A DNA stretch of 64,000 nucleotides, taken from a candidate division WOR-3 bacterium (GTDB taxonomy: Bacteria > Hydrothermota > Tepidihabitantia > Tepidihabitantales > CAIPLT01). Below are positions 758 to 61,372 of this stretch, one piece after another; positions within the stretch are counted from its first letter, which is position 1, and each line of letters starts with the position of its first letter. The notes under the pieces were generated by a model. That model was not told where the DNA came from. It saw nothing but the letters and a program-made list of their open reading frames with translations, and made no database searches. The DNA lies in NCBI GenBank assembly GCA_026418155.1, contig JAOABV010000001.1, positions 457-64,456 on the forward strand, read 5' to 3'. The translations under genes were made by a program, and so were the position numbers.

Positions 758-2506
758 TTGAGACTTAATCTATTCTTACGCCAATTTCTAACTTATGCGT
801 TAATTATTATTCTGACCACCTCAATTATCATTTTAATTACATCTTACGAGTATAAAAAAAACTATCTAAAAAGTTTGGAAATAGATTTACAAAAACAGGC
901 AGAGATTATCCGTGCTGAGATTAAAGACGATTTGATTAATAAAAAATACAAAAAGATTGATTCCTTTATCAATAATCTCGCACCTCAAATTAAAACCCGA
1001 ATTACGATTATCCGAAATGATGGCGTCGTCATTGCCGAATCAGATTATTCGGCTGATAAGATGGAAGACCACTCCACCCGCTCGGAATTTATCCAAGCCA
1101 TTCAAACCGGATTGGGCAAAAAAATTCGCTTTAGCAAAACTATGCAACAAAATATGCTCTATGTCGCAGTTCCCATAACTGATAATAATAAAGTGCTCGC
1201 AGTAGTTAGAACCAGTGCCTATCTCAGCCCAATACAGAAAGATTTATCGGCTGTTAATAGGAAAATTATTTATTTTGCAGCCATATTAACAATTTTAGCA
1301 TTAATTTTAGCATTTATCTTCTCAAAGAATGTAATTCAGCCAATTCGTCTTTTAACTAAAACTGCAGAGCGTATTAAAAACGGCGAATTTCAAACACATA
1401 TCATAAGTAATCGACAAGATGAAATTGGTGATTTAACAAAGGCAATTAATAAAATGGCCGATTCACTCAATACCTTATTTAACACATTACATTCCGAGCG
1501 CGAAGAGATTAAATCGGTCTTAAGCGCAATGACCGAAGGACTGTTAGTGTTAAACGATAAAGACCAAATTATTGCAACCAACGAAAGTTTCAAAACCATT
1601 GCTAATGTGAATAATGTCATTGGCCAATACTATTGGCAAATAATTAAGCACAACCTATTCAATCAGTTAGTTGCAGAACTGAGAGATAAAAAAATCTTGC
1701 GTAATCAAGAAATCGAACTTAACAACAACATCTATGCGGTAAGTGGTAAATTAATTGAAGGGCAAAACGGCCGAAATAAAGCCATTTTCGTCTTTTATGA
1801 CATCACCGAAGTCAAAAAACTTGAGAAAATTAAAGCCGATTTTATTGCCAATGTTTCCCATGAATTAAAAACCCCACTTACCAGTATTAAAGGTTTTGCT
1901 GATACTCTAACTGACGAAGTTAGCAAAAAACATCAAAAATTTGTTAGGACCATTAGTCGTAATGCTGACCGTCTCATCAACATCGTGCAAGACTTATTGG
2001 TAATTTCAGATTTAGAAAACCGAGAACAGAAACTCGAGGTCGAAAAAATTAATTTTCCCGAAATGCTGAGTAATCTTAAGAAAATGTTTAGCGCTAACCT
2101 TAAAAGCAAAAAATTAAAACTTAATCTCAAAATTGAGTCCGACGCTCAAGAATGGTTCGCAGATTATTTTTTAATTGAGCAGATGTTTACCAATTTAATT
2201 GATAATGCCATTAAATATAATCGAGAAAAGGGAGAAATTTATATTATTATTCAAAAGGTGGACGACAATCTAAAAATTATAGTTGAAGATACTGGTATTG
2301 GCATTAGCCGAGAACATTGGGATAGAATCTTTGAAAGATTTTATGTGGTTGATAAATCTCGTTCGCGTAAACTGGGCGGAACTGGACTGGGACTTGCAAT
2401 TGTCAAACACATTGTCTTAAGTCACAATGGCGAGATTAAAGTCGAAAGCGAAGTTGGTAAAGGAACAAGATTTATTGTTACACTTCCGCAATATAGTAGC
2501 GCGTAA
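758..2506 (+). CDS. phoR: sensor histidine kinase, PhoR-like (TM, HAMP, PAS, HisKA, HATPase)
   Basis: H-box ...FIANVSHELKTPLTSI..., N/G boxes (DNAIKYN, GTGLGLAI); TTG start 6 nt after phoB stop. Confidence 0.8.
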   Translation: MRLNLFLRQFLTYALIIILTTSIIILITSYEYKKNYLKSLEIDLQKQAEIIRAEIKDDLINKKYKKIDSFINNLAPQIKTRITIIRNDGVVIAESDYSADKMEDHSTRSEFIQAIQTGLGKKIRFSKTMQQNMLYVAVPITDNNKVLAVVRTSAYLSPIQKDLSAVNRKIIYFAAILTILALILAFIFSKNVIQPIRLLTKTAERIKNGEFQTHIISNRQDEIGDLTKAINKMADSLNTLFNTLHSEREEIKSVLSAMTEGLLVLNDKDQIIATNESFKTIANVNNVIGQYYWQIIKHNLFNQLVAELRDKKILRNQEIELNNNIYAVSGKLIEGQNGRNKAIFVFYDITEVKKLEKIKADFIANVSHELKTPLTSIKGFADTLTDEVSKKHQKFVRTISRNADRLINIVQDLLVISDLENREQKLEVEKINFPEMLSNLKKMFSANLKSKKLKLNLKIESDAQEWFADYFLIEQMFTNLIDNAIKYNREKGEIYIIIQKVDDNLKIIVEDTGIGISREHWDRIFERFYVVDKSRSRKLGGTGLGLAIVKHIVLSHNGEIKVESEVGKGTRFIVTLPQYSSA

Positions 2507-2592
2507 CCCATAATGGCGAAATCAAAGTCGAAAGCGAAGTTGGCAAAGGAACAAGATTTATTATTACACTTCCGCAATATAGTTGCGTGTAA
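2421..2592 (+). repeat. ~86-bp tandem duplication of the phoR 3' end; copy 2 is a decayed, non-coding copy containing the TTG at 2583
   Basis: 2421-2506 vs 2507-2592 differ only by scattered transitions; both copies end ...cacttccgcaatatagt(a/t)gcg(c/t)gtaa. Confidence 0.85.
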
Positions 2593-3071
2593 AGATTTAC
2601 GAGCATATAACCGTGAATGTGAATAAGAAAAAGGTCTTATTCATCTGTACCCATAATTCTGCACGGTCGCAAATGGCTGAAGGATTACTAAATCATTTAT
2701 ATGGCGATAGATACGAAGCATATAGCGCCGGCACTCAACCAACCATGGTAAATCCTTATGCAATTAAAGTGATGCGGGAGATTGGCATTGATATTTCACA
2801 CCATCGGTCAAAAAGTGTGCAGGAGTTTCTAAATCAAGAAATAAATTATGTAATAACTGTTTGCGACAGCGCTAAAGAAACCTGTCCATTCTTTCCGGGT
2901 GGTAAAAAACGACTACACCAAAGTTTTCAAGACCCTTCAGACTTTACTGGCAATGAAGAAGAAACCCTAAATATCTTTAGGAAAGTAAGAGATGAGATAA
3001 AAATGTGGATTGAGGAGACCTTTGCTAAAATAATCAAAGAAAATACAGAAAATTCCGAAAACCCCGCTTGA
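2583..3071 (+). CDS. arsC: thioredoxin-coupled arsenate reductase ArsC (LMW-PTP family); true start is probably GTG ~2622
   Basis: P-loop CTHNSARSQMAEG; downstream VITVCDSAKETCPFFP Cys pair as in Staphylococcus/Bacillus ArsC; C-terminal ...FRKVRDEI... Confidence 0.75.
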   Translation: MRVKIYEHITVNVNKKKVLFICTHNSARSQMAEGLLNHLYGDRYEAYSAGTQPTMVNPYAIKVMREIGIDISHHRSKSVQEFLNQEINYVITVCDSAKETCPFFPGGKKRLHQSFQDPSDFTGNEEETLNIFRKVRDEIKMWIEETFAKIIKENTENSENPA

Positions 3072-3085
3072 CTTCTTAGGTTATC

Positions 3086-3743: not shown

Positions 3744-4145
3744 ATGTTTAACATTGGCACAATGTTTTTGACAGTTTCAGCACTATCGTTCTCTCCTGCT
3801 AATATTACAACCGCTCAAGCGAATAAAATTTCCGAATTACGACTATATGCAGATAATGGACAAGAACTCCTTTCGGCTGAAGGGATGATGCCTGAAATCG
3901 TTGTTACTGCTGAGTATCCGCAAACGTCCTCTACAACTAATCAACCCAACAAATTTCAACAGATTAACGATTACTTCACATTTATTGTTAATGTGCTAAT
4001 TGTCCTATTCTTTATGGGAATGGGAATTACAACATTATTATCAAAATGGAAAAGACGCAAAGGTCATAAGAAAGAAAAAGGTCCATTTTCCCTTCCGCCT
4101 TTTTCTAATAAAAATATCGATTTAGGCAAGGATTATGCCTGCTAA
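3744..4145 (+). CDS. hypothetical small exported/membrane protein (N-terminal signal-like segment, C-terminal TM, basic tail)
   Basis: ORF only; hydrophobic N-terminus and IVNVLIVLFFMGMGITTLL TM segment. Confidence 0.35.
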   Translation: MFNIGTMFLTVSALSFSPANITTAQANKISELRLYADNGQELLSAEGMMPEIVVTAEYPQTSSTTNQPNKFQQINDYFTFIVNVLIVLFFMGMGITTLLSKWKRRKGHKKEKGPFSLPPFSNKNIDLGKDYAC

Positions 4146-4254
4146 TCGAAAAGATGAAAATATGAATAATAATCAACCATATTTTCATCCAAAGCCAGAA
4201 AACTATCCCCTCGATAAAGAAATTAAATTTAATCTTAATAATACCATAAAATTA

Positions 4255-4375
4255 TTTATCGGTGATAAGTTCTGGCTTGAAAAATATATCTTAAAAAACT
4301 ATATAAGAAAGAAAGCCGTTGGTAAATTCTGGTTTGATAAATATGTCATAAAAAATATATATCAAAAAGGAGTTA
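4255..4375 (+). repeat. 2 x ~57-bp tandem direct repeat just upstream of the porin start; copy 2 carries a Pho-box-like TGTCATAAAA half-site
   Basis: ggtgataagttctggcttgaaaaatatatc... vs ggtaaattctggtttgataaatatgtcataaaaaatatat... Confidence 0.5.
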
Positions 4376-4377
4376 TT

Positions 4378-5532
4378 ATGCTTAAAAAAACTGTCATCAA
4401 ATTAACTCTCTTATTTTTAACTTGGACAGTAGGGTTACAAGCCGGCGAAACCAAAGTTGCCGGTGAAATCTGGAATCGGTATATGGTATATCGGAAAGAC
4501 AACAAAACAACCCTTAATCAATTCTCGTTTGACCGCGGTTATCTCACCTTAGAACCGAAATTAAGCGATAAAATCAAGGGCCGTTTTACCCTTGATTTTT
4601 TCTCAAGCGATAAATATAATGATGGCGCTGGCATCAAAGTAAAATACGGATTTTTACAATTTGCCGAACCAATACCAATTAAAGAGAGCAACCTCGAAAT
4701 CGGTTTAGTGAAAAACTATTTTGGTCTGGTCTACGACTGGGCTTATCCAGTAATTGAGAAGGCAATTGAAGATAAAGAAAAAGTTGCGGCATCAGTTGAC
4801 TACGGAATCGCATTTACAGGCTATCTACCAAAGGGATTTGGCGAATATGCAGTCGGTTTGTATAATGGCGAAGGTTACACTAAGACCCAAAGTAAAGTTA
4901 ATACTCAATTCGCACCATTGTTCAATCTCCGGTTAACCCCAATTGCTGGTATTACCTTGGGTGGTTCAATAATCGTAGATAAGCCAGGCGTAACTGGTTT
5001 AGTGCGACAGACTACTACTACCAGTCGTGCTGAATCGCTATTCAAAAATGTCTATGATAAACGACGAGTAATTGCCGGCATTACCAAACTTGCATTTGGA
5101 CCAGTTGAAATCTGGGGTGAGTATTTAACCAATTATTATGATTCCACTATTACTAAAAAAGTGTCCCGCCCCAATATTCCGGATACCATAACGACTACAA
5201 CTTATATTTACAAAAGTAAAGGTTTTTCCTTAACTCCTATTTTCTCATTAAACCAATTAACCGGTTTGGATGTTGAACTGGTTTTTCGCTATGATTTTTG
5301 GGATAGCAACACTGATGTTAAAGACTATAAGAGTGCTTTCTCTACGATGGTAATTGGTGGTAATTACAATATCCTAAGAGGACTAAGTGCTGACCCTGTC
5401 TTAACTTTGCAAATAAACTGGCAGCGTAAAACTTTCAAAAAGGAAGATCCGTCAATTCCTGATGTCAAAAAGCCCGAGGACCAGATTGGTGTTCAATTAA
5501 AGTGGAAATATAGTTCCACAATCCTTAATTAA
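4378..5532 (+). CDS. outer-membrane beta-barrel porin, possibly phosphate-selective (OprO/P-like), in the Pho locus
   Basis: SD aaaaaggag + ATG 4378; signal peptide MLKKTVIKLTLLFLTWTVGLQA; alternating amphipathic beta-strand pattern, aromatic C-terminus; sits between phoR and pstS. Confidence 0.5.
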   Translation: MLKKTVIKLTLLFLTWTVGLQAGETKVAGEIWNRYMVYRKDNKTTLNQFSFDRGYLTLEPKLSDKIKGRFTLDFFSSDKYNDGAGIKVKYGFLQFAEPIPIKESNLEIGLVKNYFGLVYDWAYPVIEKAIEDKEKVAASVDYGIAFTGYLPKGFGEYAVGLYNGEGYTKTQSKVNTQFAPLFNLRLTPIAGITLGGSIIVDKPGVTGLVRQTTTTSRAESLFKNVYDKRRVIAGITKLAFGPVEIWGEYLTNYYDSTITKKVSRPNIPDTITTTTYIYKSKGFSLTPIFSLNQLTGLDVELVFRYDFWDSNTDVKDYKSAFSTMVIGGNYNILRGLSADPVLTLQINWQRKTFKKEDPSIPDVKKPEDQIGVQLKWKYSSTILN

Positions 5533-6453: not shown

Positions 6454-6566
6454 AACCCAGATTTCATTCGACTTTTTCTTGCTCGTTTTTCCATACGAAT
6501 TTTTCTTGCTTGTTTTTCTATACGAAAAGCCGACTTTGCTATTCTGAGCGCATGCAATGATATGAT

Positions 6567-7271: not shown

Positions 7272-8150
7272 ATGATGAAATTTAAAGAATCCCTATTCAA
7301 ATATCTGGCACTTTTTGCTGCATTATGCTCGGTTATCTTTCTCTTTGGTATTATTTTTAGCATTTTTAAGGAAGGTTATCCCATCTTTAAAATCTACGGG
7401 ATTATAAAATTTCTGTTTACAACCAGTTGGCATCCGACTCATGATGAACCGAGTTATGGAATTTTGGCATTACTTGTTGGGTCATTTATTGTAACTGCTG
7501 GTTCTTTAATTGTCGCAATTCCTTTAGGTGTTGGCTCTGCAATATATTTATCGGAAATCGCTGGTTTCAAAACTCGCGAAGTCTTAAAGCCTTTTGTTGA
7601 ACTTTTGGCTGGCATTCCCTCAGTAATTTATGGCTTGTTTGGAATGGCGTTTTTAGCACCATTTGTAATGCGGTTATTTAATCTTTCAACTGGACTAAAT
7701 GCTTTTACGGCTTCAATAATTTTAGGTATTATGGTTGTGCCAATTATTGCCAGTATTTCTGAAGATGCTATCTCATCAATTCCTAATGAGTTGCGCGAGG
7801 CGTCTTATGCCTTGGGTGCAAATAAATGGGAAACAATTTATAAAGTTATTTTACCTGCAGCCAAATCGGGCATCTATGCCAGCATCATACTCGGTTTTGG
7901 TCGGGCAATTGGTGAGACGATGCTTGTGTTAATGGTGGCTGGTGGTTCGGCAATAATTCCTAAGTCAATTTTTTCTCCAGTCCGACCTATGACCGCAACG
8001 ATTGCAGCAGAAATGGGTGAGACTGTAGTAGGTAGTGAACATTATCATGCATTATTTGGCATTGCCATCGTCCTGTTTGTCATCACTTTCATCTCCAATT
8101 TAATTACTGAATCAATCAAAAGAAAAGTGATGCGGTCACAAAACCTATGA
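7272..8150 (+). CDS. pstC: phosphate ABC transporter permease PstC
   Basis: Multi-TM, EAA-like loop ...ASYALGANKWETIYKVILPAAKSGI... Confidence 0.9.
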   Translation: MMKFKESLFKYLALFAALCSVIFLFGIIFSIFKEGYPIFKIYGIIKFLFTTSWHPTHDEPSYGILALLVGSFIVTAGSLIVAIPLGVGSAIYLSEIAGFKTREVLKPFVELLAGIPSVIYGLFGMAFLAPFVMRLFNLSTGLNAFTASIILGIMVVPIIASISEDAISSIPNELREASYALGANKWETIYKVILPAAKSGIYASIILGFGRAIGETMLVLMVAGGSAIIPKSIFSPVRPMTATIAAEMGETVVGSEHYHALFGIAIVLFVITFISNLITESIKRKVMRSQNL

Positions 8151-8277
8151 GACCGAAACTAAGATTAAATTCTACGCACATCCTGTTTATCATTACTTTC
8201 ATCTCCAATTTAATTACTGAATTAATGTAATGCAGTCACAAAACCTATGAAACTGAAACGCAGATTAAATCAGGCAG
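8069..8277 (+). repeat. ~110-bp tandem duplication spanning the pstC stop / pstA start junction
   Basis: 8081-8188 vs 8191-8277 (catcactttcatctccaatttaattactgaa...); the pstA ATG lies in copy 2 and the pstC stop in copy 1. Confidence 0.85.
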
Positions 8278-19962: not shown

Positions 19963-20001
19963 TAGTTAATTTTCTTATTAAAATTATCTGTGTTATCATA
20001 T

Positions 20002-21300: not shown

Positions 21301-21692
21301 CTATTTTTATGAAATGTCAAGAACAAAAGAACCTTTTGACAAGATTTTTTGTAGGCCTATTAGGAAGGCGTTTTCAAGATTTCTATGTTAAGGGGCTAGG
21401 GTGGGGCTAACCCGTTTTTAGCATTGGGAAAGGCAATATCTGACTTATATGCGGTAGAGAAGGTCGCTTATCAGGTAGAAAACGCTTAAAAAGATTATTC
21501 GTTGTCTTAGATATATTTTATCTTAGATCCTATTGTCTTGTAGGATGTAATCAATATAGTAAATATTTGCCCTGATAAGTGTCTTTGCTTCTTATCTTGT
21601 TAATAATCCAACGAGATTTAAGGCGTTATAATTTATCAGGAATTATAATAATTTTTACTAAAGGTTGTGTGCTAAGAAAGAAATTAAAACAT

Positions 21693-22090
21693 ATGAGAAA
21701 AACTTTTGTCTAAATCTTTAATTTAGACTACACTTCCTTCATCTCAATCGTGTTTTCTTCTTATCATATAGTTACCCAATATTAACAAAATAAGGTATTA
21801 TAAATATATCAATTGAAGTGTATGAGAAAACTCGTTGTCTAAATCTTTAATTTAGACCTCACTTCCTTCATCTCAATCGTGTTTTCTTCTTATCATATAT
21901 TTACTCAGTGTTAATAAAATAAGATATTATAAATATACCAATTGAGGCTTATGTGAAAACTCGTTATCTAAATCTTTAACTTAGATTAGACATCACTGAT
22001 TCCGACCGTGTTTTCTTCTTATTGTTCTTGTTATCCTTTACTGTTGACAGATAAGATATTATAGTTATAAATTATAAATATAAAGTTAAT
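21693..22090. repeat. 3 x ~129-bp degenerate tandem array, each unit carrying a 21-bp palindrome GTCTAAATctttaATTTAGAC (third copy degenerate)
   Basis: Palindromes at 21707-21727, 21836-21856, 21986-22006; units share atgagaaaac...gtgttttcttcttat... Confidence 0.8.
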
Positions 22091-27715: not shown

Positions 27716-27975
27716 ATATTTTATTTAAGGTTGTTTTTTGATACTTTTTACCTTTTGGGAATATCTCATACATTTTTTGTTCATTTTTTCCGATTAGAAA
27801 TTTGCCTTCTTAAGGTTGCCTTTTGATTCTTTCACCTTTTGGGAGTATCTCATACACTTTTCTGTTCTGTTCACTTTTTTCCGATTAGAAATTGTTTTCT
27901 TAAGGTTGTTTTTTAATTCTTTCCCCTTCTTGAAGTATCTCGTAGGCTTTTTTCTGTTCACCTTTTTCCCGGTAA
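27716..27975. repeat. 3 x ~93-bp tandem repeat; the innermost copy is the coding 3' end of the TPR gene (minus strand), the outer two are decayed copies with stops
   Basis: cttaaggttg.tttt.a..ctttc.cc.t.t.g.agtatctc.ta...tttt.tgttca at 27716, 27807, 27900. Confidence 0.8.
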
Positions 27976-29534: not shown

Positions 29535-29725
29535 TATCTTTAAAGTCAACTATATTTAACATATTATGTCTAAATTTACCCAGAATATTATATGCTACCA
29601 TAAGCAGACACATCTTTATCTTTAACATACCAAGTCTATATTTAACCAGAACATATACATTACCATTAAAAGAGCATCATTTATCTTTAACATAGCAAGT
29701 CTAAATTTATTCAAAGTATTTATGC
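29535..29725. repeat. dispersed ~70-bp repeat family, locus D (two tandem partial copies)
   Basis: ctttaacata[cg]caagtcta[ta]atttaa.. at 29621 and 29684. Confidence 0.65.
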
Positions 29726-29740
29726 TATCTTTTTATTTAC

Positions 29741-34193: not shown

Positions 34194-34751
34194 ATGATTA
34201 CACCTAATGATTTTCGACCTGGACTTTTAGTTCGATATCGCGATGACATTTGGGAAATAGTCGAATACCAACGCGTAAAAATTGCCCAACGCCGTGCCTT
34301 TGTCCGAACTACCTTTCGCCACCTACTAACCGGCAAGACAATTGAAGAAAATCTCTCTTCCGAAGAAAAACTGGAAGAACTACAAGTCGAGCGCAGAAAA
34401 TGCCAGTATCTATATAACGATGGCGAAAACTATCACTTTATGGAACTTGAGCACTACGACCAATTTGCCCTATCAAAAGAGATTTTAGGTGATAAGGTTC
34501 TCTATCTTACAGAAAACACCATCGTCGACATTCTATATGTTGAAGCCAAACCCCTAACAATAGAAGTACCCAACTTTGTAGAACTAACCGTGGTCGAAAC
34601 CGAACCTGACTACAAAGGCGATACCGCAACCGGTGGTGGCAAACCCGCAAAATTAGAAACCGGTCTTGTAATATCAGTCCCTTTCTTTATTAAAGTTGGT
34701 GATAAAATCCGAATCGATACCAGGTCTAATTCATATGTGGAAAGAGTCTAA
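34194..34751 (+). CDS. efp: elongation factor P
   Basis: 185 aa KOW/OB architecture; ...KPGKG.AF.R.. Confidence 0.9.
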   Translation: MITPNDFRPGLLVRYRDDIWEIVEYQRVKIAQRRAFVRTTFRHLLTGKTIEENLSSEEKLEELQVERRKCQYLYNDGENYHFMELEHYDQFALSKEILGDKVLYLTENTIVDILYVEAKPLTIEVPNFVELTVVETEPDYKGDTATGGGKPAKLETGLVISVPFFIKVGDKIRIDTRSNSYVERV

Positions 34752-34902
34752 AGAATTTTACACCTAAAGATAATCTAACTCTTATGGAGAAAGAGTCTAA
34801 AGATTTTGCAACTAAAGGCAATCTAATTATTATTAAGAAAGAATCTAAAGATTTGTGTCTGAAAGAGTCTAAAAAATTTGCAATTAAAGGTAATTGTTAT
34901 CA
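34738..34902 (+). repeat. 4 decaying tandem copies (~40-50 bp) of the efp 3' end including its stop codon
   Basis: gtggaaagagtctaaagaatttta... / ggagaaagagtctaaagattttgca... / aaagaatctaaagatttgtg... / aaagagtctaaaaaatttgca... Confidence 0.8.
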
Positions 34903-39292: not shown

Positions 39293-39949
39293 ATGGTGTC
39301 TAATTTACGCATTGTTAAAAATTGGTATCTTGTGATTGACAAGAATCTCTTAAATCCTAAAATTGGCTGTGGGTTGGTTTTATCCCATATTCGCCGTTAT
39401 CACAATATCAGTGAGATGTTGCAAAAAGCACTCAATGTCTATCATATCCGAACTCTTTTCGCCGATAAACCTGCACAAGCACTTTTAGAAGATGACGCTA
39501 TCGTCAAAGAATTCTGTAAAAATGCGTTATCTATGATGCCCCTGCATAGTAATTTACAAAATTCTTTTAGCATTCAGCAGGTATTCCTTCTCATCGACCC
39601 ATCGGAAGACACTGGTTGGCTTTTAGGTGCTGCGGAAAATCGTCTGCAGTTTCTGAACTACTATAAAGATGTTGTCCCGGTGTTAATGAAAAAATTTGGC
39701 ATTCTCCTTAGCGGTTCAACCCCAAGACTCCTGCCTTTAGGCTGGCAAAATCTTTATGATGTCTTTGATGAAGAGTTTATCAAAAGCCACCCGGAAATCA
39801 AAAGTATTGAAATCTTATCGGTCTTAACCGACACGCGCTTTCGCTATCCTGTTTTAAGTATCGGTATAAACCTGTTGAATATAAAAACTGCAGATGCGGT
39901 GCGAGAAAAAGTGTTGGAAGTCCTAAAACCACCTTGCCAATTAAAATGA
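39293..39949 (+). CDS. hypothetical protein
   Basis: ORF only. Confidence 0.45.
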   Translation: MVSNLRIVKNWYLVIDKNLLNPKIGCGLVLSHIRRYHNISEMLQKALNVYHIRTLFADKPAQALLEDDAIVKEFCKNALSMMPLHSNLQNSFSIQQVFLLIDPSEDTGWLLGAAENRLQFLNYYKDVVPVLMKKFGILLSGSTPRLLPLGWQNLYDVFDEEFIKSHPEIKSIEILSVLTDTRFRYPVLSIGINLLNIKTADAVREKVLEVLKPPCQLK

Positions 39950-40260
39950 AAATTGCTTACTGCCTGACTTTTATGCTGCAAAAAGATAAATACCTTATAA
40001 TTCAAACGAGCAAAACCATATTACTATCAATTAAAATAAAAATTGCTGACTGATTATATGCTGTTATTAATATCAAGTAAAATAGAAAATTGCTTCCAAG
40101 TATGATTGCAAACTATTCTCAAGGACTGATGAAAAGAACTCTTAAGAGAAAATCGCTTTCAAATATGATTGCGGTAGAATCTTAAAAATGGATAAAGAGA
40201 AAATTACTTACAAATACGATTACAGAACAATCTCAAAGATGGATAAAAAGAATTCTCTCG
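39935..40260 (+). repeat. 5-6 decaying ~35-50-bp tandem units spanning the stop of the 39293 gene and the start of nnr
   Basis: aaaatgaaaattgcttactgcctgac... / aaaataaaaattgctgactgatta... / aaatagaaaattgcttccaagtatgattgc... / gagaaaatcgctttcaaatatgattgcgg... / gagaaaattacttacaaatacgattacag... Confidence 0.75.
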
Positions 40261-48649: not shown

Positions 48650-48698
48650 TCTTTAACATATCAAACTAAAATTTACACAAAATATTATACCCTACCGA
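48650..48698. repeat. dispersed ~70-bp repeat family, partial copy C
   Basis: ctttaacatatcaaactaaaatttacacaaaatattataccctacc. Confidence 0.6.
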
Positions 48699-52039: not shown

Positions 52040-52306
52040 TAAATAAAATCTGTTTTAAGGTTTAACAAGGTAGAGCAATTAAAAATATATAATTTTAATA
52101 ATATTATTAAGATAAAAACTATTATTATTTATTATGTGGATAACTAAAGAATACCTAAAATACATAATAAACATATATAAACTTAATCCACATCCGATAA
52201 AATCTTTTTTGTTATTTGTGGATAAGAAAGATCAAACAGACAAATTTACTTTCTTTGTAGTGGATAATTACTACATTTTCAACAAGTTTTCCACAACTTA
52301 TCCACC
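52040..52306. other. oriC part 1: DnaA-box cluster downstream of dnaA
   Basis: TGTGGATAA 52136-44, AATCCACA 52185-92, TGTGGATAA 52218-26, AGTGGATAA 52259-67, TTTTCCACA 52287-95, TTATCCACC 52298-306. Confidence 0.7.
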
Positions 52307-53665
52307 GTTTATTAACATTAGAACCTTTTGAATTTTTTGGGCAATATCCGGGTTTGATTTTTTAAGTTCTGTTATTTTTTCAATAGCGTGAATGACTGTA
52401 GAATGGTCCTTACCACCAAAAATTGACCCGATTTCTTTAAGCGACATTCCTAATAAGGTGCGTAAAAGATACATTGCAACCTGCCTGCCTAAAGCCAAAT
52501 TCGCAGTCCGCTCTTTAGATTGCAACTGTTCAACAGTAACCCCAAATTGTTTCGCAACTACATCAATGATTTTCAATGGCTTAGGTTTTTCATAGGTGAT
52601 ATGTAGGTCTGAAAGAACCTGTTTACAGACATCTAAGGTTAGCGGAGTATTGGTTAAGGATGCGTAGCCGGCTAAGCGAATCAAACAGCCTTCTAATTCC
52701 CGGATATTGGTTTTTATGTTTTCTGCGATAAAGTAGATGATTTCCGGGTCAATGTTTATCGATTCAGTTTTGGCTTTATTATTTAGAATGGCAATCCTTG
52801 TTTCTAAATCTGGTGGTTTTAAGTCGCAGACTAAACCTGACAATAACCGTGAAACTAAACGCTCTTCTAAGGTAGGAATTTCTCGAGGCGGTCGGTCTGA
52901 GGTGAAAACAATCTGTTTACCCATTCCCTGAAGGTAATTAAAGAGATGAAAGACTTCTTCTTGTAACCGTTCTTTGCCTTTAAGATAGTGAATATCATCA
53001 ATTAATAATAAATCTAAGTTGCGGTATTTATTATTAAAGGCGAATTGGTTTCTTTCTTGGATTGATTGGATAAGGTCTAAAAAGAAGAGTTCTGCGGGCG
53101 TGTAGCAAATCTTTGCTTGGGGATTGTTATTTTTGACATAATTGCCAATAGCGTGCAAAAGGTGAGTTTTACCTAATCCCACTCCGCCATAGATAAATAG
53201 TGGATTATAAGTTTTGGCAGGTGCTGTTGCTACTGCTTTACAAGCAGCATAAGCAAATCGGTTCGATTCTCCGATAATAAAATTATCAAAGGTATATCGC
53301 TCAATAAGTCGTGATTGATTGGTAAGTCGATTTGAGGTCTGATTATGAGTAGAGATATGTTTGGCTGCTGTAGTATTATTGGAATAAGTATTTTCTGTGT
53401 TGGTCGATTCAGGCGAAGACTCTTCAGGTATTACTGTGAAATTTATCTTTAGATTTAATTGAGTAAGAACCTGAGATAAAGCATTTGAATAATATTCAGA
53501 AATCCATTCAATAAAGAATTGATTTGGAGCTCCAACTTCTAAAGAACCGTCATCAAGATTAAGTGGTCTTAAAGGACGAAACCAAGCAGTAATCGCATCT
53601 TGATTAATTAATTCACTCAGACCGGAAATAATTTTTGACCAGACTTGCTCTTTCAATTCGCTCAT
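52298..53665 (-). CDS. dnaA: chromosomal replication initiator DnaA
   Basis: AAA+ ...GGVGLGKTHLLHAIGN..., ...LLIDDIH..., C-terminal HTH ...SKERTANLALGRQVAMYL... Confidence 0.95.
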   Translation of the reverse strand: MSELKEQVWSKIISGLSELINQDAITAWFRPLRPLNLDDGSLEVGAPNQFFIEWISEYYSNALSQVLTQLNLKINFTVIPEESSPESTNTENTYSNNTTAAKHISTHNQTSNRLTNQSRLIERYTFDNFIIGESNRFAYAACKAVATAPAKTYNPLFIYGGVGLGKTHLLHAIGNYVKNNNPQAKICYTPAELFFLDLIQSIQERNQFAFNNKYRNLDLLLIDDIHYLKGKERLQEEVFHLFNYLQGMGKQIVFTSDRPPREIPTLEERLVSRLLSGLVCDLKPPDLETRIAILNNKAKTESINIDPEIIYFIAENIKTNIRELEGCLIRLAGYASLTNTPLTLDVCKQVLSDLHITYEKPKPLKIIDVVAKQFGVTVEQLQSKERTANLALGRQVAMYLLRTLLGMSLKEIGSIFGGKDHSTVIHAIEKITELKKSNPDIAQKIQKVLMLINGG

Positions 53666-54110: not shown

Positions 54111-56639
54111 CTAAATCTTTTTACCAGCGACTACAGCTTGACCTAATGCAATTCCACCGTCATTGATTGGAACGGTTCGATTAAAATAGACATCAAATCC
54201 GGAGTTTTCAAGCAAGGAGACAATGCCGTTAAGAATTATTCGATTCTGAAAGACTCCGCCCGCAAGACAGACCTGAGATATTTTTGTTTGTTGAGATATT
54301 TTTTTTACGACTTCAACTGAAGTTTGAATCACCCATTGATGAAATAGATAGGACAACCTATTAGTTTCAACCCCTGAATCTCTTTGTTTAATGAGAAATT
54401 CAAAAATTGGTTTTGGTTCAATTATAAAAGTATCATATTGATAAACATCGTGGCTTGGTAAAGAACCTTTATTAGATTGTCTTATTAAATTTTCTTTAGG
54501 GTTATTTAAACTCAGCGCTGGTTGATAAATTTGTTTTGAGCGCGAGTCAATACGGTTATTAACTAATGAAATCGAATTTTGAATTATCTCATATCTTATT
54601 CTTTCTTTTGTTTTAGTGCTGGATGCAAAATTTATTGCTTCGGCCTCTAAACTTATCGGCGCCTCGGCTTCGTAAGTTTGTAAGGAGCAAGTGCCCAACA
54701 GATAAGCGACTGCATCAAATAGCCGTGCAAAACTTGATGTGAATATTTGATTATGAGTAAAAACCTTAGGTCTTTTTTTTAATAACTCTAATTCAATAAG
54801 ATATGCTTCACAGATCATTTTCGGATTGGTAATTGCGCTATCACCACCAATCAGGGGTAAATATCGTAAATGTGCTAAGCGCTGGTAGTTTTGATAACTG
54901 ACCAACATAAATTCACTGCCCCAAATATTACCATCAGGACCAAATCCAGTTCCATCAAAACTTAAGCCGATAACCGGAGGTTTTAGATTATGCTCAGCCA
55001 TAACGCTCACAAGATGGGCAAAATGATGCTGGATTTTTAATAAAGGAATTTTGTGTTTTTCAGCAAATGCTTCAGCCAATCGAAAAGAAACATAATTTGG
55101 ATGTAAATCACACGCGACAATCTCAGGCTTAATACTAAACCACTTCTGATACTTTGTTAGCATCTCCCAAAAGAAATCGATGCTCTCATTAGAACCAAAA
55201 TCGCCAATATAAGGACTTAAGTAGACTTTTTTATCTTCACCTAAAGCAAAACAATTCTTTAAGTCAGAACCGAATGCCAAAACTGGTTTTAGATTAACAT
55301 TTTTTAGTTCAATCGGTGAAGGCACATAACCCCTTGAGCGCCTTATTAAAATTTGCCCCTGATAATTAAATACTACAGAATCATCGCACCGGGATTCAAT
55401 TTTACGATTATGGTCAAGAATATAATCAACACATTTAGAAAGACGATTTTTTATATCTATAGCATTTGTGATAATCGGTGCATCTTTAGGGTTAGCACTG
55501 GTCATTACTAGTACTTTTAATTGACCAGAAGTTTTTTTTATAGTTTTATGCTTGTTATTGCCGAATGTTTCATGTGAAACATTTTTAGTCTCAAATAATA
55601 GTTTATGTAGTGGTGTATATGGTAACATTATGCCTAAATAAGCATTATTGGGCGCAACAGATTCTGCTATTTTTAATTTAGGATTTAGGCGCTTTTTTAG
55701 AAGCACGATTGGTGCAATATTAGATTTCAGCAAATTTTCTTCTTCTTTGTTAATAGTGCATAATTGCTTTATAGTCTTAATGTCTTTGCACATTAAGGCA
55801 AAAGGTTTTCGGGGTCGATTTTTTCTTTTTCTTAGTCTTCGGACTGCGGATTCATTTTGAGCATCAACTGCTAAAAGAAAACCGCCAATAGATTTTATAC
55901 ATAGTATTTTTCCTTGGTTTAATAATGAGACTGCCTTTTTAATAATTTCTTGGGAGTTTGCTTTTTTAATACCGAGAAGTTTGATTTTTTCTTGGCTTAG
56001 TAATGAGATTTCGTTTTTAATAATCTTTTGGCTGTTTTCTTTTTTAATCGTAAGTGGTTGGGAAATCGGGCTTAGGGTAAGATGGGGTCCACAGATATGG
56101 CAGGCATTAGGTTGGGCGTGGAATCTTCGGTCCTGAGGATTTTTATACTCTTTTTCGCAATCCGGACACATCTTAAACATAGCCATTGTCGTTCGAGGTC
56201 GGTCATAAGGGGTATCTAAGATTATGGAATACCTTGGTCCGCATTGCGTGCAGTTAGTAAAAGGATAATAAAACCGACGGTTTTTAGGCATTAGGATTTC
56301 AGCAATACATTCCTGGCAGATTGCTAAATCAGGCATTATGGAGACAGCACAGATATTGTTTTTAGTTTTAGGTTGACTGGCAACAATAGTAAAATCTGTA
56401 TAGATTTTTGTATTGATTGATTTTACAATAATGCTGTCAATTTTGGCTAATTTAGGCGGCGAGGTTTTTAGGATACTTAAAAATTTTCGGCTATTTTTTC
56501 CTTGGCAGAAAATTAAGACACCTTGTTTTGTGTTTTTGACTATACCACTAAGATTTAATTTTTTAGCAACATTATAAACATAGGGTCTAAAACCAATACC
56601 TTGAACCTGTCCTTTAACTAAAATTGAGAGAGTTTTCAT
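54111..56639 (-). CDS. hypF: [NiFe]-hydrogenase maturation carbamoyltransferase HypF
   Basis: Acylphosphatase N-terminus (VKGQVQGIGFRPYVYN), two C-x2-C-x18-C-x2-C zinc fingers, YrdC-like and Kae1/YgjD-like C-terminal domains. Confidence 0.85.
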   Translation of the reverse strand: MKTLSILVKGQVQGIGFRPYVYNVAKKLNLSGIVKNTKQGVLIFCQGKNSRKFLSILKTSPPKLAKIDSIIVKSINTKIYTDFTIVASQPKTKNNICAVSIMPDLAICQECIAEILMPKNRRFYYPFTNCTQCGPRYSIILDTPYDRPRTTMAMFKMCPDCEKEYKNPQDRRFHAQPNACHICGPHLTLSPISQPLTIKKENSQKIIKNEISLLSQEKIKLLGIKKANSQEIIKKAVSLLNQGKILCIKSIGGFLLAVDAQNESAVRRLRKRKNRPRKPFALMCKDIKTIKQLCTINKEEENLLKSNIAPIVLLKKRLNPKLKIAESVAPNNAYLGIMLPYTPLHKLLFETKNVSHETFGNNKHKTIKKTSGQLKVLVMTSANPKDAPIITNAIDIKNRLSKCVDYILDHNRKIESRCDDSVVFNYQGQILIRRSRGYVPSPIELKNVNLKPVLAFGSDLKNCFALGEDKKVYLSPYIGDFGSNESIDFFWEMLTKYQKWFSIKPEIVACDLHPNYVSFRLAEAFAEKHKIPLLKIQHHFAHLVSVMAEHNLKPPVIGLSFDGTGFGPDGNIWGSEFMLVSYQNYQRLAHLRYLPLIGGDSAITNPKMICEAYLIELELLKKRPKVFTHNQIFTSSFARLFDAVAYLLGTCSLQTYEAEAPISLEAEAINFASSTKTKERIRYEIIQNSISLVNNRIDSRSKQIYQPALSLNNPKENLIRQSNKGSLPSHDVYQYDTFIIEPKPIFEFLIKQRDSGVETNRLSYLFHQWVIQTSVEVVKKISQQTKISQVCLAGGVFQNRIILNGIVSLLENSGFDVYFNRTVPINDGGIALGQAVVAGKKI

Positions 56640-56689
56640 TTGAGAATAGAGTAGTTGTTCGCTAAAAGAATGCTTTTAATTCTTGGATT

Positions 56690-56830
56690 AGGTGTGATTT
56701 GATTCTTGTGTTTTGATTTGAAGTCTTCAAAGTTTGGGAGAACGGTCACAAAACCGTTCTTCTCCAAAAGGTGAGCAATTTTATTCTTATGTTTTGATTT
56801 GAAGTCCTCAAAGAGTAAGTCCTTGGTGGC
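56690..56830. repeat. 2 x ~62-bp tandem repeat with central GGAGAACGG/CCGTTCTTCTCC hairpin; the overlapping 90-aa ORF (56636..56908) is probably a repeat artefact
   Basis: ttcttgtgttttgatttgaagtcttcaaag / ttcttatgttttgatttgaagtcctcaaag. Confidence 0.6.
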
Positions 56831-56864
56831 AATAATGCGAAACCGGGTTAGGTATATTTTATTC

Positions 56865-58121
56865 TTAGGTTTTAAGTGGTTTTTTTTGGGCTGCAGGAAA
56901 CAAGACATTGTTTAATATTAGTCGATAGCCAGGAGAGTTTTTATGCAATTCTAAATTAGTCTGAGGGTCGCCAATGCGATGTGCGAAATCTTCAGGGTCA
57001 TGACCACCTAAAAAAGTAAATGTGCCTTTACCAAATTTTCCGTGGATGTATTTAACTTCTTCGGTATTAGGAACTTCACCTAATATCAAGACATTTTTCT
57101 TTATTTTATCTCGCCGGAATCCGCAGTTTTGTCCCAGAAATTCTTTGACCAAAGCAACATGGTTTTGAACCAGCATTGTTGGAACTGGGTCATACTTAGC
57201 CGAAAAATCGAAGAGCGAGAAGTAGACATTTGGTCCCCGAGCCGAAGATTCAATATAGGTATCAATATCAGAATGTTCATAGACATAAGGGTCAATGACG
57301 ACAGTGAAATTTTCAAATGCCAAACAGTTAGCATAATTGAGTTTAGACATATAATTAGGGTCAACCGGGTCGCCATCAAACTCCTTAGGAACGATGTCTG
57401 TATTTTCTGCGGCCAAAGCGATATCAGGAGTATCAGTCGAAGAACACATTGCAAAGACCATCCCACCATCTTCTATATACTTTTTAATCTCTTTTACTAC
57501 TGCCAATTTTAATTTAGATACTTTTTTGAATCCCAATGACTTAGCCATAGCAGTATTCAATATAACATCTTCTTGATACCAGTCGGCATGTCCGTGTCCT
57601 GCGAGAAATTTGCCATATTGTCCAGTAAAGTCTTCGTGGTGTAGGTGAAGCCAGTCGTATTCTTTTAATTTGCCTTGGAGCACTTCTTTATCCCAGATGC
57701 GGTCATAAGGTATCTTGGCGTATTCTAAGGCTAGTCTTACTGCGTCGTCCCAGGGCTCGTGATTTGGTGGCACATAGACCGCAATTTTGGGTGCTTTTTC
57801 TAAAAGCATTGCGTCCATATTCTCTTTTTCAATTGTCTGTCTAATGGTTATTTCTTGGCTGGGAGAGATTACTTCATAACGAACACCCCGAAGATTGCAA
57901 AGTTTTCTAATTGCTGGATTGTCAGCCATCAGAAACGAACCGCCTCGATAATTCAATAACCACTCAACATTTTCACCTGCTAAAAGACAATTATACGCAA
58001 TTCCATAAGCCATTAAATGGTCGGTTTGAGTCAAGTCCATAGGAATCAATATCTTAGCATGGGTAAAAGTAAAAGAAAGAAAGGTTGAGAAAAGAAGGAT
58101 TAATTTAGTGGTTCTGTGCAT
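56865..58121 (-). CDS. hypothetical secreted protein (signal peptide; His-rich HLHHEDF...GHGHADWY segment)
   Basis: ORF + signal peptide MHRTTKLILLFSTFLSFTFTHA. Confidence 0.55.
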   Translation of the reverse strand: MHRTTKLILLFSTFLSFTFTHAKILIPMDLTQTDHLMAYGIAYNCLLAGENVEWLLNYRGGSFLMADNPAIRKLCNLRGVRYEVISPSQEITIRQTIEKENMDAMLLEKAPKIAVYVPPNHEPWDDAVRLALEYAKIPYDRIWDKEVLQGKLKEYDWLHLHHEDFTGQYGKFLAGHGHADWYQEDVILNTAMAKSLGFKKVSKLKLAVVKEIKKYIEDGGMVFAMCSSTDTPDIALAAENTDIVPKEFDGDPVDPNYMSKLNYANCLAFENFTVVIDPYVYEHSDIDTYIESSARGPNVYFSLFDFSAKYDPVPTMLVQNHVALVKEFLGQNCGFRRDKIKKNVLILGEVPNTEEVKYIHGKFGKGTFTFLGGHDPEDFAHRIGDPQTNLELHKNSPGYRLILNNVLFPAAQKKPLKT

Positions 58122-58325
58122 ATTTTAGCTTGTGTCTCATTATTATAGTAATTATAGTAATTGTTTTGTTGGTTCTGTTTGTATTTTAGCCTTGTGTTTA
58201 TTCTCATTGTATTGTTTTGTTGGTTCTGTTTATATTTTAGTCTTGTGTCACATTATTGTAGTAATTGTTTTTATTGGTTCTGTTTGTATTTTAGCCTTGT
58301 GTTTCATTATCTGTAGTAACATTTA
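58108..58325. repeat. 3.5 x ~60-bp tandem repeat that includes the start-codon region of the 56865..58121 gene (copies have lost the ATG)
   Basis: ggttctgt(gca/ttg)tattttagc.ttgtgt.t.att... x4; ORF 58132..58329 is a repeat artefact. Confidence 0.8.
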
Positions 58326-58404
58326 TTAATTCTATTCGTATCTTATCTCAATTTTATTCGTATCTTATTACAGCATTAATCGTCCTACCGATTAATTATT
58401 AGTG

Positions 58405-59394: not shown

Positions 59395-59697
59395 ATGCGT
59401 TTAGCCCTTCTTTAAAAGTGATATTCACAGGTGTTTGTCGCTTTCATATAAAATTTTAAGCAATATATTGATTAATGTCAAGACAGTAAGATACCAGCAA
59501 AGATGCTGGCAGTATCGAGTCTTCTGAAAAAGTAATTTTCTGCTAATGACCAAAGAGTAATATGAGAGTATTGCAAAAGTTTTCAATAAGACAGCAACAC
59601 CTTTTTTCGCCATTTTATACTTGTAGTATGAGAGTATTGCAAGCATCCTTTCTTCCAATAAGAGCATTTTTCACTATTTCGTTCTTTTCGGATTTTT

Positions 59698-59890
59698 TCC
59701 GAACTTTAATGTAATTGATAACTTTTTCTTCAACCTATGATGTTCTTATGCCGAACTTTTCCCTATAATGTAATTGATACCTTTTTTCTTCAACCTATAA
59801 TGTTCTTATGCATAACTTTTCCCTATAATGTAATTGACAACTCTTTTCTTCAACCTATAATGTTCTTATGCTGAAACTTAATAATCAGGA
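59698..59890 (+). repeat. 3 x ~60-bp tandem repeat, each unit with a TATAAT -10-like hexamer; the last unit contains the selA ATG
   Basis: (aatgtaattga.a.ct.tttcttcaacctat.atgttcttatgc..aactttt ccctat) x3; cttatgccgaac / cttatgcataac / cttATGctgaaac. Confidence 0.8.
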
Positions 59891-61274
59891 AGTGTTAAAA
59901 AACATTCCATCGGTTGATAAGATTCTTAACTGGCAGGATGTTAAGGTGTTTGAAAAGAAAATTAAGACTTCTTATTTAACTGAGATTGTTCGGTATAAGA
60001 CTGATGAGTTTAGACAAAAACTACTTGGAGGTGAAAGACTTAGTCCTGACGATTTGAAACAGATGGTCGTCGCAGAACTAAAATTCCTGACCGAACGATA
60101 TTTTACTTATGCGATTAATGCCTTAGGAGTTATTCTCCATACTGGATTGGGCCGGGCTCCTTTTGCTCAAGGCATTGACAAGATTCTGCAAGATGTTAGT
60201 CAGGCTTATGCTCGGTTACAGATTGATGACGAAGGTAAACGCGATGACCGGTATAAAAAGATTAGTAAACTGCTTAGAGTCTTAACAGGTTGTGAAGCAG
60301 GAATTATCGTTAATAATAATGCCGGGGCGACGCTTTTGGTCCTATCCGCAATCGCCAAAGGAAAAGAGGTTGTGGTCTCCCGCGGTCAATTAATTGAAAT
60401 TGGTGGTTCTTTTCGCCTGCCTGAAATTATGGCACAATCTGGTTGTATTCTCCGGGAAGTCGGCACAACTAACCGCACACATCTTAAAGATTATGAACAA
60501 GTTATCAATGAGAACACCGGCGCAATTTTAAGAGTTCATCAATCTAATTATCGGATTATCGGTTTTACCTCTGAGGTCCCTTTAGCCGAATTGGTGTCTT
60601 TGGGAAAAAAGTATCAGGTTCCGGTAATTGATGATTTGGGTAGTGGTGCTTTAATTGATTTCTCTAAATACGGTTTACCCAAAGAGCCAATGGCACAAGA
60701 AAGTATTGCGCTTGGTGCCGATATTGTCTGTTTTAGCGGTGATAAATTGATTGGCGGACCACAATGCGGTATCATTATTGGCAAAAAAGCCTATCTGGAA
60801 AAGATTAAAAAGCATCCTTTAACTCGGGCACTAAGGTGTGATAAATTAACTAACGCGGTTTTAGAAGCAACCTTACAAAAGTTTTTACTACCAGAAGAAG
60901 ATTTGATTAATGAACATACTGTGTATCAACTTATGCTGAAACCATTAAATGAAATCAAAAGACAGGCGAATTGGTTCGCACGGAAATTAAAAAAGGAACA
61001 CAGTTCTCAATTGACCTGTGAAGTAAAACCATCACATAGTGAAATTGGTGGTGGTTCGTTAAGCACCGAACAACTACCAACTTTTGTAGTCATAATAAAA
61101 CCGAACAATCTCTCATCCCAAGATTTAGCCAAAAGACTTCGGCAATACCAACCACCAATCTTTGGTCGGATTCACGAAGATTCATTAATCCTTGATTTTA
61201 GAACCGTGCTGAAAGGCGAAGAAAAAATAATTTTACAAGCATTGCAAGAAAACTTAAAGAGTAATGATAAATAA
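59868..61274 (+). CDS. selA: L-seryl-tRNA(Sec) selenium transferase
   Basis: PLP lysine context ...CFSGDKLIGGPQCGIIIGKK... (cf. E. coli FSGDKLLGGPQAGIIVGKK); 468 aa. Confidence 0.9.
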   Translation: MLKLNNQEVLKNIPSVDKILNWQDVKVFEKKIKTSYLTEIVRYKTDEFRQKLLGGERLSPDDLKQMVVAELKFLTERYFTYAINALGVILHTGLGRAPFAQGIDKILQDVSQAYARLQIDDEGKRDDRYKKISKLLRVLTGCEAGIIVNNNAGATLLVLSAIAKGKEVVVSRGQLIEIGGSFRLPEIMAQSGCILREVGTTNRTHLKDYEQVINENTGAILRVHQSNYRIIGFTSEVPLAELVSLGKKYQVPVIDDLGSGALIDFSKYGLPKEPMAQESIALGADIVCFSGDKLIGGPQCGIIIGKKAYLEKIKKHPLTRALRCDKLTNAVLEATLQKFLLPEEDLINEHTVYQLMLKPLNEIKRQANWFARKLKKEHSSQLTCEVKPSHSEIGGGSLSTEQLPTFVVIIKPNNLSSQDLAKRLRQYQPPIFGRIHEDSLILDFRTVLKGEEKIILQALQENLKSNDK

Positions 61275-61372
61275 TACGATAAATACTTTACAAGCAATGC
61301 AAGAAATCTTAAAGAGCAAAAATAAATAATACGATAAGCATTGCAAATACGCAAAATGTAAATATTATCTAA
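61228..61372 (+). repeat. 2.5 decaying ~55-bp tandem copies of the selA 3' end including its stop codon
   Basis: ttttacaagcattgcaagaaaacttaaagagtaatgataaataatacgataaatac / tttacaagcaatgcaagaaatcttaaagagcaaaaataaataatacgataagc / attgcaaatacgcaaaatg. Confidence 0.8.

Follow-up and report, generated by a model that had tools for sequence, protein, structure and literature searches.

Short tandem duplications in a WOR-3 lineage: their position at gene borders points to untargeted duplication seen through purifying selection

Introduction

The stretch of DNA analysed here, a 64-kb window of a metagenome-assembled genome (MAG) of candidate division WOR-3 (hereafter the window), raises the question of why so many of the spacers between its genes are built from short tandem copies of the ends of the flanking genes. 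The original prediction, made from the letters of the window, named a series of such loci and ascribed them to a single mechanism acting at the borders of transcription units. The analysis reported here points to untargeted duplication seen through purifying selection, for which a border-targeted mechanism is unneeded; the unusual aspect of the arrays is their lineage-specific abundance, not their location.

Related genomes provided the ancestral state for this comparison. All matches to the selA gene of the window came from candidate division WOR-3 MAGs, and scans of genomes and metagenomes found no relative nearer than ~83% selA identity. The EF-P and DnaA proteins of the window were matched at 100% identity on a 70.7-kb WOR-3 contig at NCBI. 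The nearest retrievable genome, GCA_039801465.1 (contig JBDRUT010000001.1; hereafter JBDRUT01), is syntenic with the window, and its proteins are 89% (EF-P), 93% (PstC) and 86% (DnaA) identical to those encoded there. We compared ~70 kb of JBDRUT01, in stretches labelled L023, L019, L027 and L001, together with an independent Logan assembly (L024) and the loci L002, L007, L021, L025 and L026 of relatives.

Results

Fifteen head-to-tail arrays in the window

Arrays were detected with Tandem Repeats Finder (TRF), by self-BLAST of the window, by copy-by-copy local alignment and by direct reading. At the threshold applied to TRF counts (period >=20, score >=80) the window yielded 11 arrays, and 15 once self-BLAST was added (Table 1). 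Their periods range from 27 to 129 bp, each array has 2-5 copies, and these are 71-95% identical to the copy nearest the gene. Additional copies account for 2.6% of the window and for 13% of its non-coding sequence. Every array is strictly head-to-tail, its copies abutting with no DNA between them. One unit repeated head-to-tail, a period above ~10 bp and at least two copies, all as seen by TRF and self-BLAST, place them among minisatellites of the variable-number tandem repeat (VNTR) type. They do not resemble arrays of clustered regularly interspaced short palindromic repeats (CRISPR), as the copies abut and the whole unit repeats, and an Rfam scan returned neither a CRISPR-type family nor any other family overlapping an array. 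In the window self-BLAST the arrays shared no homology across loci, except for a promoter-like motif (at 19981, 29551, 48330 and 48641).

Of the 15 arrays, nine run across a stop or start codon, four lie wholly in intergenic DNA and two are intragenic. Tandem, diverged copies were recovered by TRF, self-BLAST and copy-by-copy alignment at all loci named in the original prediction, and the outer copies are, as it had proposed, non-coding relics, in which stops, frameshifts and decay can be seen. Its inclusion of the arrays at 4255-4366 and 6465-6526 stood in part: both are tandem and intergenic, and for these two, as for the intergenic arrays at 21692-22073 and 29551-29741, derivation from a gene terminus could not be shown. 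The latter two arrays, and the two intragenic ones in dnaX and hypF, had not been listed.

Table 1. Tandem arrays of the window, with unit length, copy number and identity where determined
Feature	Coordinates	Strand	Unit and copies
phoR-like histidine kinase (758..2506) 3' end	2423..2592	+	86 bp x2, 92% identity, E=2e-27
intergenic array before 384-aa gene	4255..4366	+	~62 bp x2, 80% identity
intergenic array after pstS	6465..6526	+	27 bp x2.3
pstC/pstA junction	8071..8270	+	110 bp x2, 81% identity
intergenic array, rmuC/acyltransferase divergent 1-kb spacer	21692..22073	.	129 bp x3, 90% and 73% identity
dnaX intragenic in-frame duplication	24961..25086	-	63 bp (21 aa)
TPR gene (27900..29456) 3' end	27725..27985	-	~88 bp x3
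promoter-like motif array upstream of TPR gene (intergenic)	29551..29741	-	~65 bp, three copies
efp (34194..34751) 3' end	34725..34892	+	48 bp x ~3.5
218-aa gene/nnr junction	39935..40260	+	4-5 copies, period 51-90 bp
hypF intragenic in-frame duplication	55906..56048	-	78 bp (26 aa)
gene 56865..58121 3' end and downstream sequence	56697..56873	-	~81 bp x2.4
gene 56865..58121 5' end	58104..58383	-	51-56 bp x4-5
selA 5' end	59695..59875	+	60 bp x3 and decayed fourth copy
selA 3' end	61232..61350	+	55 bp x2 and partial third copy

Arrays are depleted from gene interiors

The expected distribution was obtained by simulation, in which duplications of the observed sizes were placed at random on the window sequence with its arrays collapsed. 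The enrichment at gene borders that had been claimed for these repeats is real within the window: 13 of the 15 arrays lie outside gene interiors, as compared with 3.4 expected (P<5e-5). Border-spanning arrays numbered 8 as coded (9 after a later reassignment) against an expectation of 1.6, and intergenic arrays 5 as coded (4 after the reassignment) against 1.8. Within genes, two in-frame arrays were observed against 7.0 expected, and no out-of-frame array against 4.6 (P=5e-5). Both intragenic survivors keep the reading frame: the dnaX duplication sits in a variable linker, giving a protein of 580 aa in the window as compared with 559 aa in the L019 orthologue, and the hypF duplication adds exactly 26 residues to the protein as compared with L001 and L002. 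Depletion inside genes together with such in-frame survivors is the mark of selection known from the microhomology-mediated tandem duplications (MTDs) of yeast, which are depleted in essential genes, biased towards the reading frame and found to survive near 3' ends (PMC8639346). The period modulo 3 of the non-intragenic arrays was left unused as evidence, because the periods of decayed arrays are too imprecise.

The survivors lie at gene ends chiefly because duplication at such a site does the gene no damage and, because the genome is compact, most of the sites at which a 30-130 bp duplication is harmless include a gene end. The share of terminus-spanning arrays among the non-intragenic, and hence tolerated, events was 0.62-0.69, not far from the uniform expectation of 0.47. 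That the live stop or start codon stands in the terminal copy, as the original prediction had emphasized, is true, and it calls for no special mechanism: a live stop in the first copy and a live start in the last are a logical necessity, given by the geometry of any junction-spanning tandem duplication. The breakpoints, for their part, fall at no fixed distance from the codon: coding sequence makes up between ~0.07 and 0.98 of the unit, from 3-9 nt at the 5' ends of selA and of an M24 peptidase gene of JBDRUT01 to 84 of 86 nt at phoR.

These observations bear on the alternative that duplication is directed to borders, through stalling or collision at promoters and terminators, through topoisomerase action at the borders of supercoiling domains, or through termination-coupled events. 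Such a mechanism would be in keeping with the nine arrays that span a start or stop codon, with the presence of arrays at both ends of selA and of gene 56865..58121 and both upstream and at the 3' end of the TPR gene, and with a spanning share slightly above the neutral expectation. It does not sit well with breakpoints that are unanchored, with four arrays that are intergenic and away from codon boundaries, or with in-frame duplications of the same size inside genes. Moreover, the 5' units contain the promoter, which lies upstream of any transcript, and the event was therefore not RNA-templated. We also found no hairpin excess in the units, whose best stems were no longer than those of control boundary segments (P=0.43), and no excess of terminators was seen at the arrays. 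A border-targeted mechanism, and with it the single mechanism at transcription-unit borders of the original prediction, is accordingly unlikely; the unanchored breakpoints, the in-frame intragenic survivors and the modest departure of the spanning share from expectation all speak against it.

Relatives retain single-copy junctions

Comparison of orthologous junctions revealed the single-copy state in relatives at the pstC/pstA, nnr, amino-acid-kinase, selA promoter and selA-selB junctions. The pstC and pstA genes overlap by 4 nt (ATGA) in four relatives (L023-L026), as compared with a 96-nt spacer in the window. There, copy 1 carries the live pstC stop (8148-8150) and a dead pstA start, and copy 2 carries a dead pstC tail and the live pstA start (8247), with the non-functional halves decaying. 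At the junction between the 218-aa gene and nnr the array repeats the entire junction, comprising the stop of the gene, the spacer and the nnr start, and the spacer measures 39 nt in L019, 88 nt in L021 and 238 nt in the window. The final copy, of 51 bp, shares the reading frame of nnr, the start of which is likely 40239 rather than the 40188 assumed earlier. Upstream of gene 56865..58121, the unit consists of the start codon and ~35 nt preceding it, and short relics of the 3' end of the upstream amino-acid-kinase gene occupy 58333-58383; the kinase gene and its downstream neighbour overlap in JBDRUT01 (L001, L027) and are 283 nt apart in the window. The small ORF (open reading frame) at 58132..58329 exists and is a repeat artefact, as had been supposed. 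The same holds for a 90-aa ORF (56636..56908) created by the array at 56697-56873 with its flanks, which had no tblastn match in L001, L002 or L007 and is spurious.

At the 5' end of selA each copy of the unit comprises TTGACA-N16-TATAAT followed by ATG and three codons. The original suggestion that this array multiplies -10-like hexamers is therefore borne out and can be extended, as what is multiplied is a full promoter, matching the sigma-70 consensus at 12/12 positions in the proximal copy and 11/12 in the next. This promoter is single in L001 and L002 (TTGACA-N16/17-TATAAT directly before ATG), as compared with 3-4 copies in the window, of which the proximal one is the best match to the relatives. 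A CCGAAC microhomology considered at this end proved to be a further decayed copy. The array at the 3' end of selA fills the selA-selB spacer, which is 105 nt long in the window and 3 nt in L001. Two further observations concern this gene. The -10 box (TATAAT) ends ~6-7 nt before the ATG in the window (59856-59870) and in relatives (L001 ~9990-10003), which suggests that the selA mRNA may be leaderless or near-leaderless. In the more distant relatives L011, L012 and L018, selA is longer and has an internal direct repeat at an offset of ~546-571 bp, with tblastn alignment lengths of 525-558 as compared with 468 aa.

Other arrays are older, and their relics can be followed across genomes. At phoR, the live stop (TAA, 2504-2506) lies in copy 1 and the relic spans 2509-2592; JBDRUT01 (L023) has the orthologous relic, joined at the same CCCAT, and L025 has no relic and a 22-nt spacer. 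The two copies in the window are 94% alike mutually as compared with 81-86% to their orthologues, which indicates that this array has undergone concerted evolution (homogenisation) or re-duplication. The ancestral phoR stop CAATAG (L025 ~7100) corresponds to CAATAT in the window (2489-2506), where the protein runs four codons further into what had been spacer; the JBDRUT01 protein has a different, 8-residue extension, which terminates at the duplication junction. Downstream of the TPR gene there are two relics in the window, each with stops and frameshifts, and one in L019 with the same left boundary (ATCGG), so copy number differs between related genomes. The L019 relic, interrupted by ~80 nt, coincides with an annotated 83-aa gene between the TPR and NMT1-like genes (3364-3615 of L019, JBDRUT010000001.1), which judging from its sequence is almost certainly a spurious gene call. 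The relic copies of efp are decaying (84% and 78% identity), and the 123-nt spacer of L019 contains a weak possible relic. The selA, pstC/pstA and nnr arrays are missing from relatives, and conversely the L019 arrays are missing from the window.

Among the intergenic arrays, the one at 4255-4366 ends 13 nt upstream of the true start of a 384-aa gene, which the orthologue in L023 places at 4379 within ORF 4135..5532, correcting the start used before. The array at 6465-6526 begins 12 nt past the pstS stop, within an 818-nt non-coding stretch without counterpart in relatives, whose pstS-pstC spacers measure 59 nt (L023) and 17 nt (L025). This stretch (6454-7271) is AT-rich. A 12-bp inverted repeat in it is perfect (GATGTGCCAAAG at 6578-6589 and the complement at 6717-6728), a 15-bp unit occurs twice (6648-6678), and the 17-59 nt spacers of the relatives carry a GC-rich hairpin. 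An origin of the 129-bp array at 21692-22073 from the start of the acyltransferase gene was considered and is not supported, as the alignment scored below the shuffle mean.

Since the source is a MAG, the arrays might be assembly artefacts, for example strain variants stitched in tandem. Artefacts of this kind give near-identical copies that are not reproduced elsewhere, whereas the copies here differ by 5-29% and by indels, the genes are intact, the intragenic duplications are exactly in frame and the proximal copy is the best match to relatives. Orthologous relics with the same boundaries occur in MAGs of different projects, and one JBDRUT01 duplication is reproduced in the Logan assembly (see below). 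An artefactual origin is therefore highly improbable.

A second possibility is that the arrays are adaptive regulatory devices, in which multiplied promoters or operators tune expression, and duplicated junctions uncouple or re-couple translation through relic upstream ORFs. The selA unit is indeed a complete consensus promoter with a next copy still at 11/12, a seven-copy array in JBDRUT01 (58 bp, 96% homogeneous) carries a palindromic operator-like site along with the start codon, and by direct reading the relic pstA start opens a 27-codon ORF that ends ~18 nt before the live pstA start. The length of this upstream ORF is within chance, with a roughly estimated probability of ~0.14, and most relics are decaying by stops, indels and changes such as that of the -35 box from TTGACA to TTGATA. 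The 3' coding-sequence relics have no obvious regulatory content, and the genes affected are functionally unrelated. Adaptation may underlie single 5' arrays that are homogeneous; it leaves the decaying coding relics at 3' ends unexplained, and as a general account of the arrays it is quite improbable.

Abundant arrays occur in one WOR-3 subclade

JBDRUT01 has arrays of its own. At the M24 peptidase gene there is an array of 58 bp x7 (96% identity), the end of which falls on the start codon. The start of an M48 peptidase gene is spanned by 90 bp x2, and 47 bp x2 lie between the gene for the signal recognition particle (SRP) RNA and dnaX. There is also a 120-bp duplication across another start codon, which is base-for-base identical in the independent Logan assembly (L023 vs L024). 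These arrays are younger than those of the window and lie at other junctions, and the older relics at the 3' ends of the TPR gene and of phoR are common to both genomes. From these sequences, the duplication process appears to be clade-wide and ongoing, and independent in JBDRUT01.

The density of arrays drops with phylogenetic distance, from ~2.3 per 10 kb in the window to ~1 per 10 kb in the 70 kb of JBDRUT01 and a few in the next outgroup, CAYYPG01. In 162.6 kb of more distant WOR-3 loci there were no TRF arrays at the same threshold and no self-BLAST repeat pair at an offset <540 bp; at a lower TRF threshold these loci gave only a few weak rows (period 15-24, score 53-69). The number of arrays in the window is well above what chance would give. 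At a contig end of a related MAG (L002 1-192) there is also an array of ~6 copies with a 33-nt period, GAAAATTGCGACTCATGAAAATCTGCATCCCCA.

One locus of JBDRUT01 differs in form. In L023, ~57 nt of the 5' end of an LMWPc phosphatase gene occur twice (5743-5800 and 7341-7400), flanking a 1.6-kb insertion of two genes, one with a Por_Secre_tail domain, directly after the phoR relic. Either the insertion entered an already neutral duplicate junction, or a staggered break captured DNA. In the window itself, two adjoining ORFs at 31472-32564 encode HTH_28 and rve_3 (integrase core) domains, which suggests a putative IS3-family-like transposase; they are not at this position in JBDRUT01.

Both observations could be taken to favour an origin of the arrays as footprints of mobile or integrating DNA, that is long target-site duplications, gene-end duplications like those at attachment (att) sites, or a repeat at start and stop codons resembling the interspersed repetitive units (MIRUs) of mycobacteria. 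IS3 elements, however, generate target duplications of only 3-5 bp, and periods that run from 27 to 129 bp do not resemble the constant stagger of an enzyme. Copies in the window arrays follow one another strictly head-to-tail with no foreign DNA between them, and every unit derives from its own flanking genes. MIRUs have been reported to insert at start codons with -4 coupling (PMC12548453), but an origin from a mobile element or MIRU-like repeat fails because the arrays, save for the promoter-like motif, share no sequence with one another in self-BLAST. We regard this explanation as very unlikely.

Junctions of young arrays show almost no microhomology

Offset self-comparison of the youngest arrays, including 47x2, 90x2 and 58x7 in JBDRUT01 (L019) and 86x2 and 78x2 in the window, detected no junction microhomology longer than 2 nt (0-2 nt in all), and the 4-8% divergence of the tested arrays could mask only very short microhomology. 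With 0-2 nt of microhomology and no hairpin excess, classical direct-repeat slippage is therefore not favoured. Near-blunt joining, either by fill-in of staggered breaks or by flap ligation during lagging-strand maturation, is possible and fits at least as well as slippage at microhomologies.

A model in three steps would account for these patterns. A replication- or repair-associated event would duplicate a short segment head-to-tail at an essentially arbitrary site. Purifying selection would then purge intragenic duplications unless they are in frame and tolerated, as the distribution of the arrays suggests, while a duplication spanning a stop, a start, an overlapping junction or a spacer would spare all genes and survive; the first copy would supply the live stop and the last the live start, and the remaining copies would automatically be relics. 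Finally, as the copy numbers and divergence show, the duplicate expands to 3-7 copies, is at times homogenised, and decays by substitutions and indels. The decay of relics is seen as stops, indels and loss of the -35 box. As a consequence, 100-280 nt now separate genes that overlapped or abutted, promoters occur in several copies, and both short upstream ORFs and falsely annotated ones have arisen.

Other features of the window

The window probably contains a replication origin at 52135-53775, to judge from 6 of its 11 DnaA-box matches (TTWTNCACA) lying on both sides of dnaA (52298..53665, minus strand) and a cumulative GC skew minimum at ~52 kb. The dispersed promoter-like motif is ~75 nt long (sense strand, GGTAGGGTATAATATTTTGTGTAAATTTAGACTTGNTATGTTAAAGATAAAG) and occurs at 19981-20081, 29551-29741, 48330-48427 and 48641-48696, as well as in L002, L007, L023 and L024. 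Without exception its copies precede genes, including rpsP, the TPR gene, an ABC ATPase gene and one for a protein sorted by the type IX secretion system (T9SS). The motif looks like a promoter or leader, and has no Rfam match and no conserved RNA structure. Two 184-bp stretches 35 kb apart (15020-15203 and 50451-50634) are 84% identical and contain 12-nt repeats of the GGCAAGCC type; both lie just downstream of genes for secreted proteins, at least one of them with a Por_Secre_tail domain. A long SRP RNA (26249-26521, minus strand) lies directly upstream of dnaX in an ffs-dnaX-ybaB arrangement, and the archaeal SRP model scores best on it (98 bits, just above the gathering threshold).

Discussion

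Taken together, the window probably belongs to a WOR-3 subclade with a high net rate of fixing tandem duplications of ~27-130 bp, which then expand and decay while selection removes the disruptive events. Several points weigh against this reading. It was drawn from ~64 kb of this genome and ~70 kb of its sister, so that extending it to whole genomes is an extrapolation. Much the same distribution could result if mutation favoured AT-rich, non-coding or transcription-boundary DNA, and the share of arrays that span a terminus (0.62-0.69) slightly exceeds the neutral value of 0.47. Young junctions without microhomology are atypical of simple slippage, which leaves the proposed initiating step weak. 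The excess in the clade may reflect higher formation, lower deletion or drift, and very homogeneous promoter arrays such as the 58 bp x7 array (96%) could be kept by selection.

A more specific version, which we offer tentatively and think rather less probable than not, is that the subclade is a natural 'tandem duplicator' lineage, in which a heritable change in replication or repair makes microhomology-free duplications of 30-130 bp and thereby remodels spacers. Candidate changes include altered flap processing, end joining on staggered breaks, and loss of an exonuclease that removes the intermediates. Duplications are so numerous in this uncultured clade as to suggest that its replication or repair is unusual.

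Whatever the initiating event, the arrays illustrate cleanly, in a natural setting, that a single step of tandem duplication can give rise to spacers, upstream ORFs, multiple promoters and non-overlapping junctions, with the ancestral overlapping state still seen in sister genomes and open to comparison. They also carry a caution for similar scans, since repeat enrichment at gene borders can be purely an artefact of selection. Relics lead, in addition, to false gene calls, namely the 83-aa 'gene' in JBDRUT01, the 90-aa and 65-aa ORFs in the window and the over-long start of nnr.

In the literature we found no description of this pattern in WOR-3 or as a signature of a bacterial genome; an abundance that is confined to a single subclade of WOR-3 and seems not to depend on microhomology is undescribed in the literature searched, and is not ordinary. 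Known systems share some of its features. Like the att duplications at gene ends, the window arrays place a relic of a gene terminus beside the intact gene. The att duplications, however, flank inserted DNA, whereas the window arrays have no insert, reach up to five copies and occur at 5' ends, 3' ends and interiors alike; the only case of copies flanking foreign DNA is the LMWPc 5' end in L023. MIRU-VNTR loci likewise consist of 40-100 bp tandem units in operon spacers at start and stop codons, with short ORFs able to couple translationally (PMC12548453). But MIRUs form one dispersed, apparently mobile family, while each window array consists of copies of the gene ends that flank it, and the homology across loci that marks dispersed mobile repeats, whether MIRUs, repetitive extragenic palindromic (REP) sequences or miniature inverted-repeat transposable elements (MITEs), was not found.

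A close likeness is to MTDs, which were mapped together with replication-slippage duplications in S. pombe, S. cerevisiae and E. coli (PMC8639346). These too are short, head-to-tail, local duplications arising anywhere in the genome, with depletion inside important genes in haploids, an in-frame bias and tolerance at 3' ends and in intergenic DNA. They differ in being defined by flanking microhomology and in being usually transient and subclonal, whereas the arrays described here have 0-2 nt of microhomology and are fixed, multi-copy and 5-29% diverged; the flanking direct repeat of MTDs (m-X-m-X-m) is absent from the youngest arrays. Detection of MTDs in E. coli was ~20-fold rarer than in S. 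pombe (PMC8639346), whereas this bacterial clade has ~1-2 fixed arrays per 10 kb.

Duplication mutators provide a further comparison, in yeast and in bacteria. E. coli polA 5'-exonuclease mutants are one such case, and the duplications of yeast rad27 mutants are classically flanked by direct repeats of 3-12 bp, which the window arrays do not have. In rad27/FEN1 strains a defect in flap processing gives rise, through maturation based on 3'-flaps, to internal tandem duplications (PMC12633238) that, like the window arrays, are tens to ~100 bp long, head-to-tail and local, the phenotype being genome-wide and not site-specific. If the subclade is indeed a 'tandem duplicator' lineage, the effects seen here, with relic copies making up 13% of the non-coding DNA, overlaps pulled apart, promoters multiplied and proteins lengthened, would be attributable to it, and the lineage would represent, among bacteria, an evolutionarily fixed equivalent of the rad27/FEN1 or cancer tandem-duplicator phenotypes.

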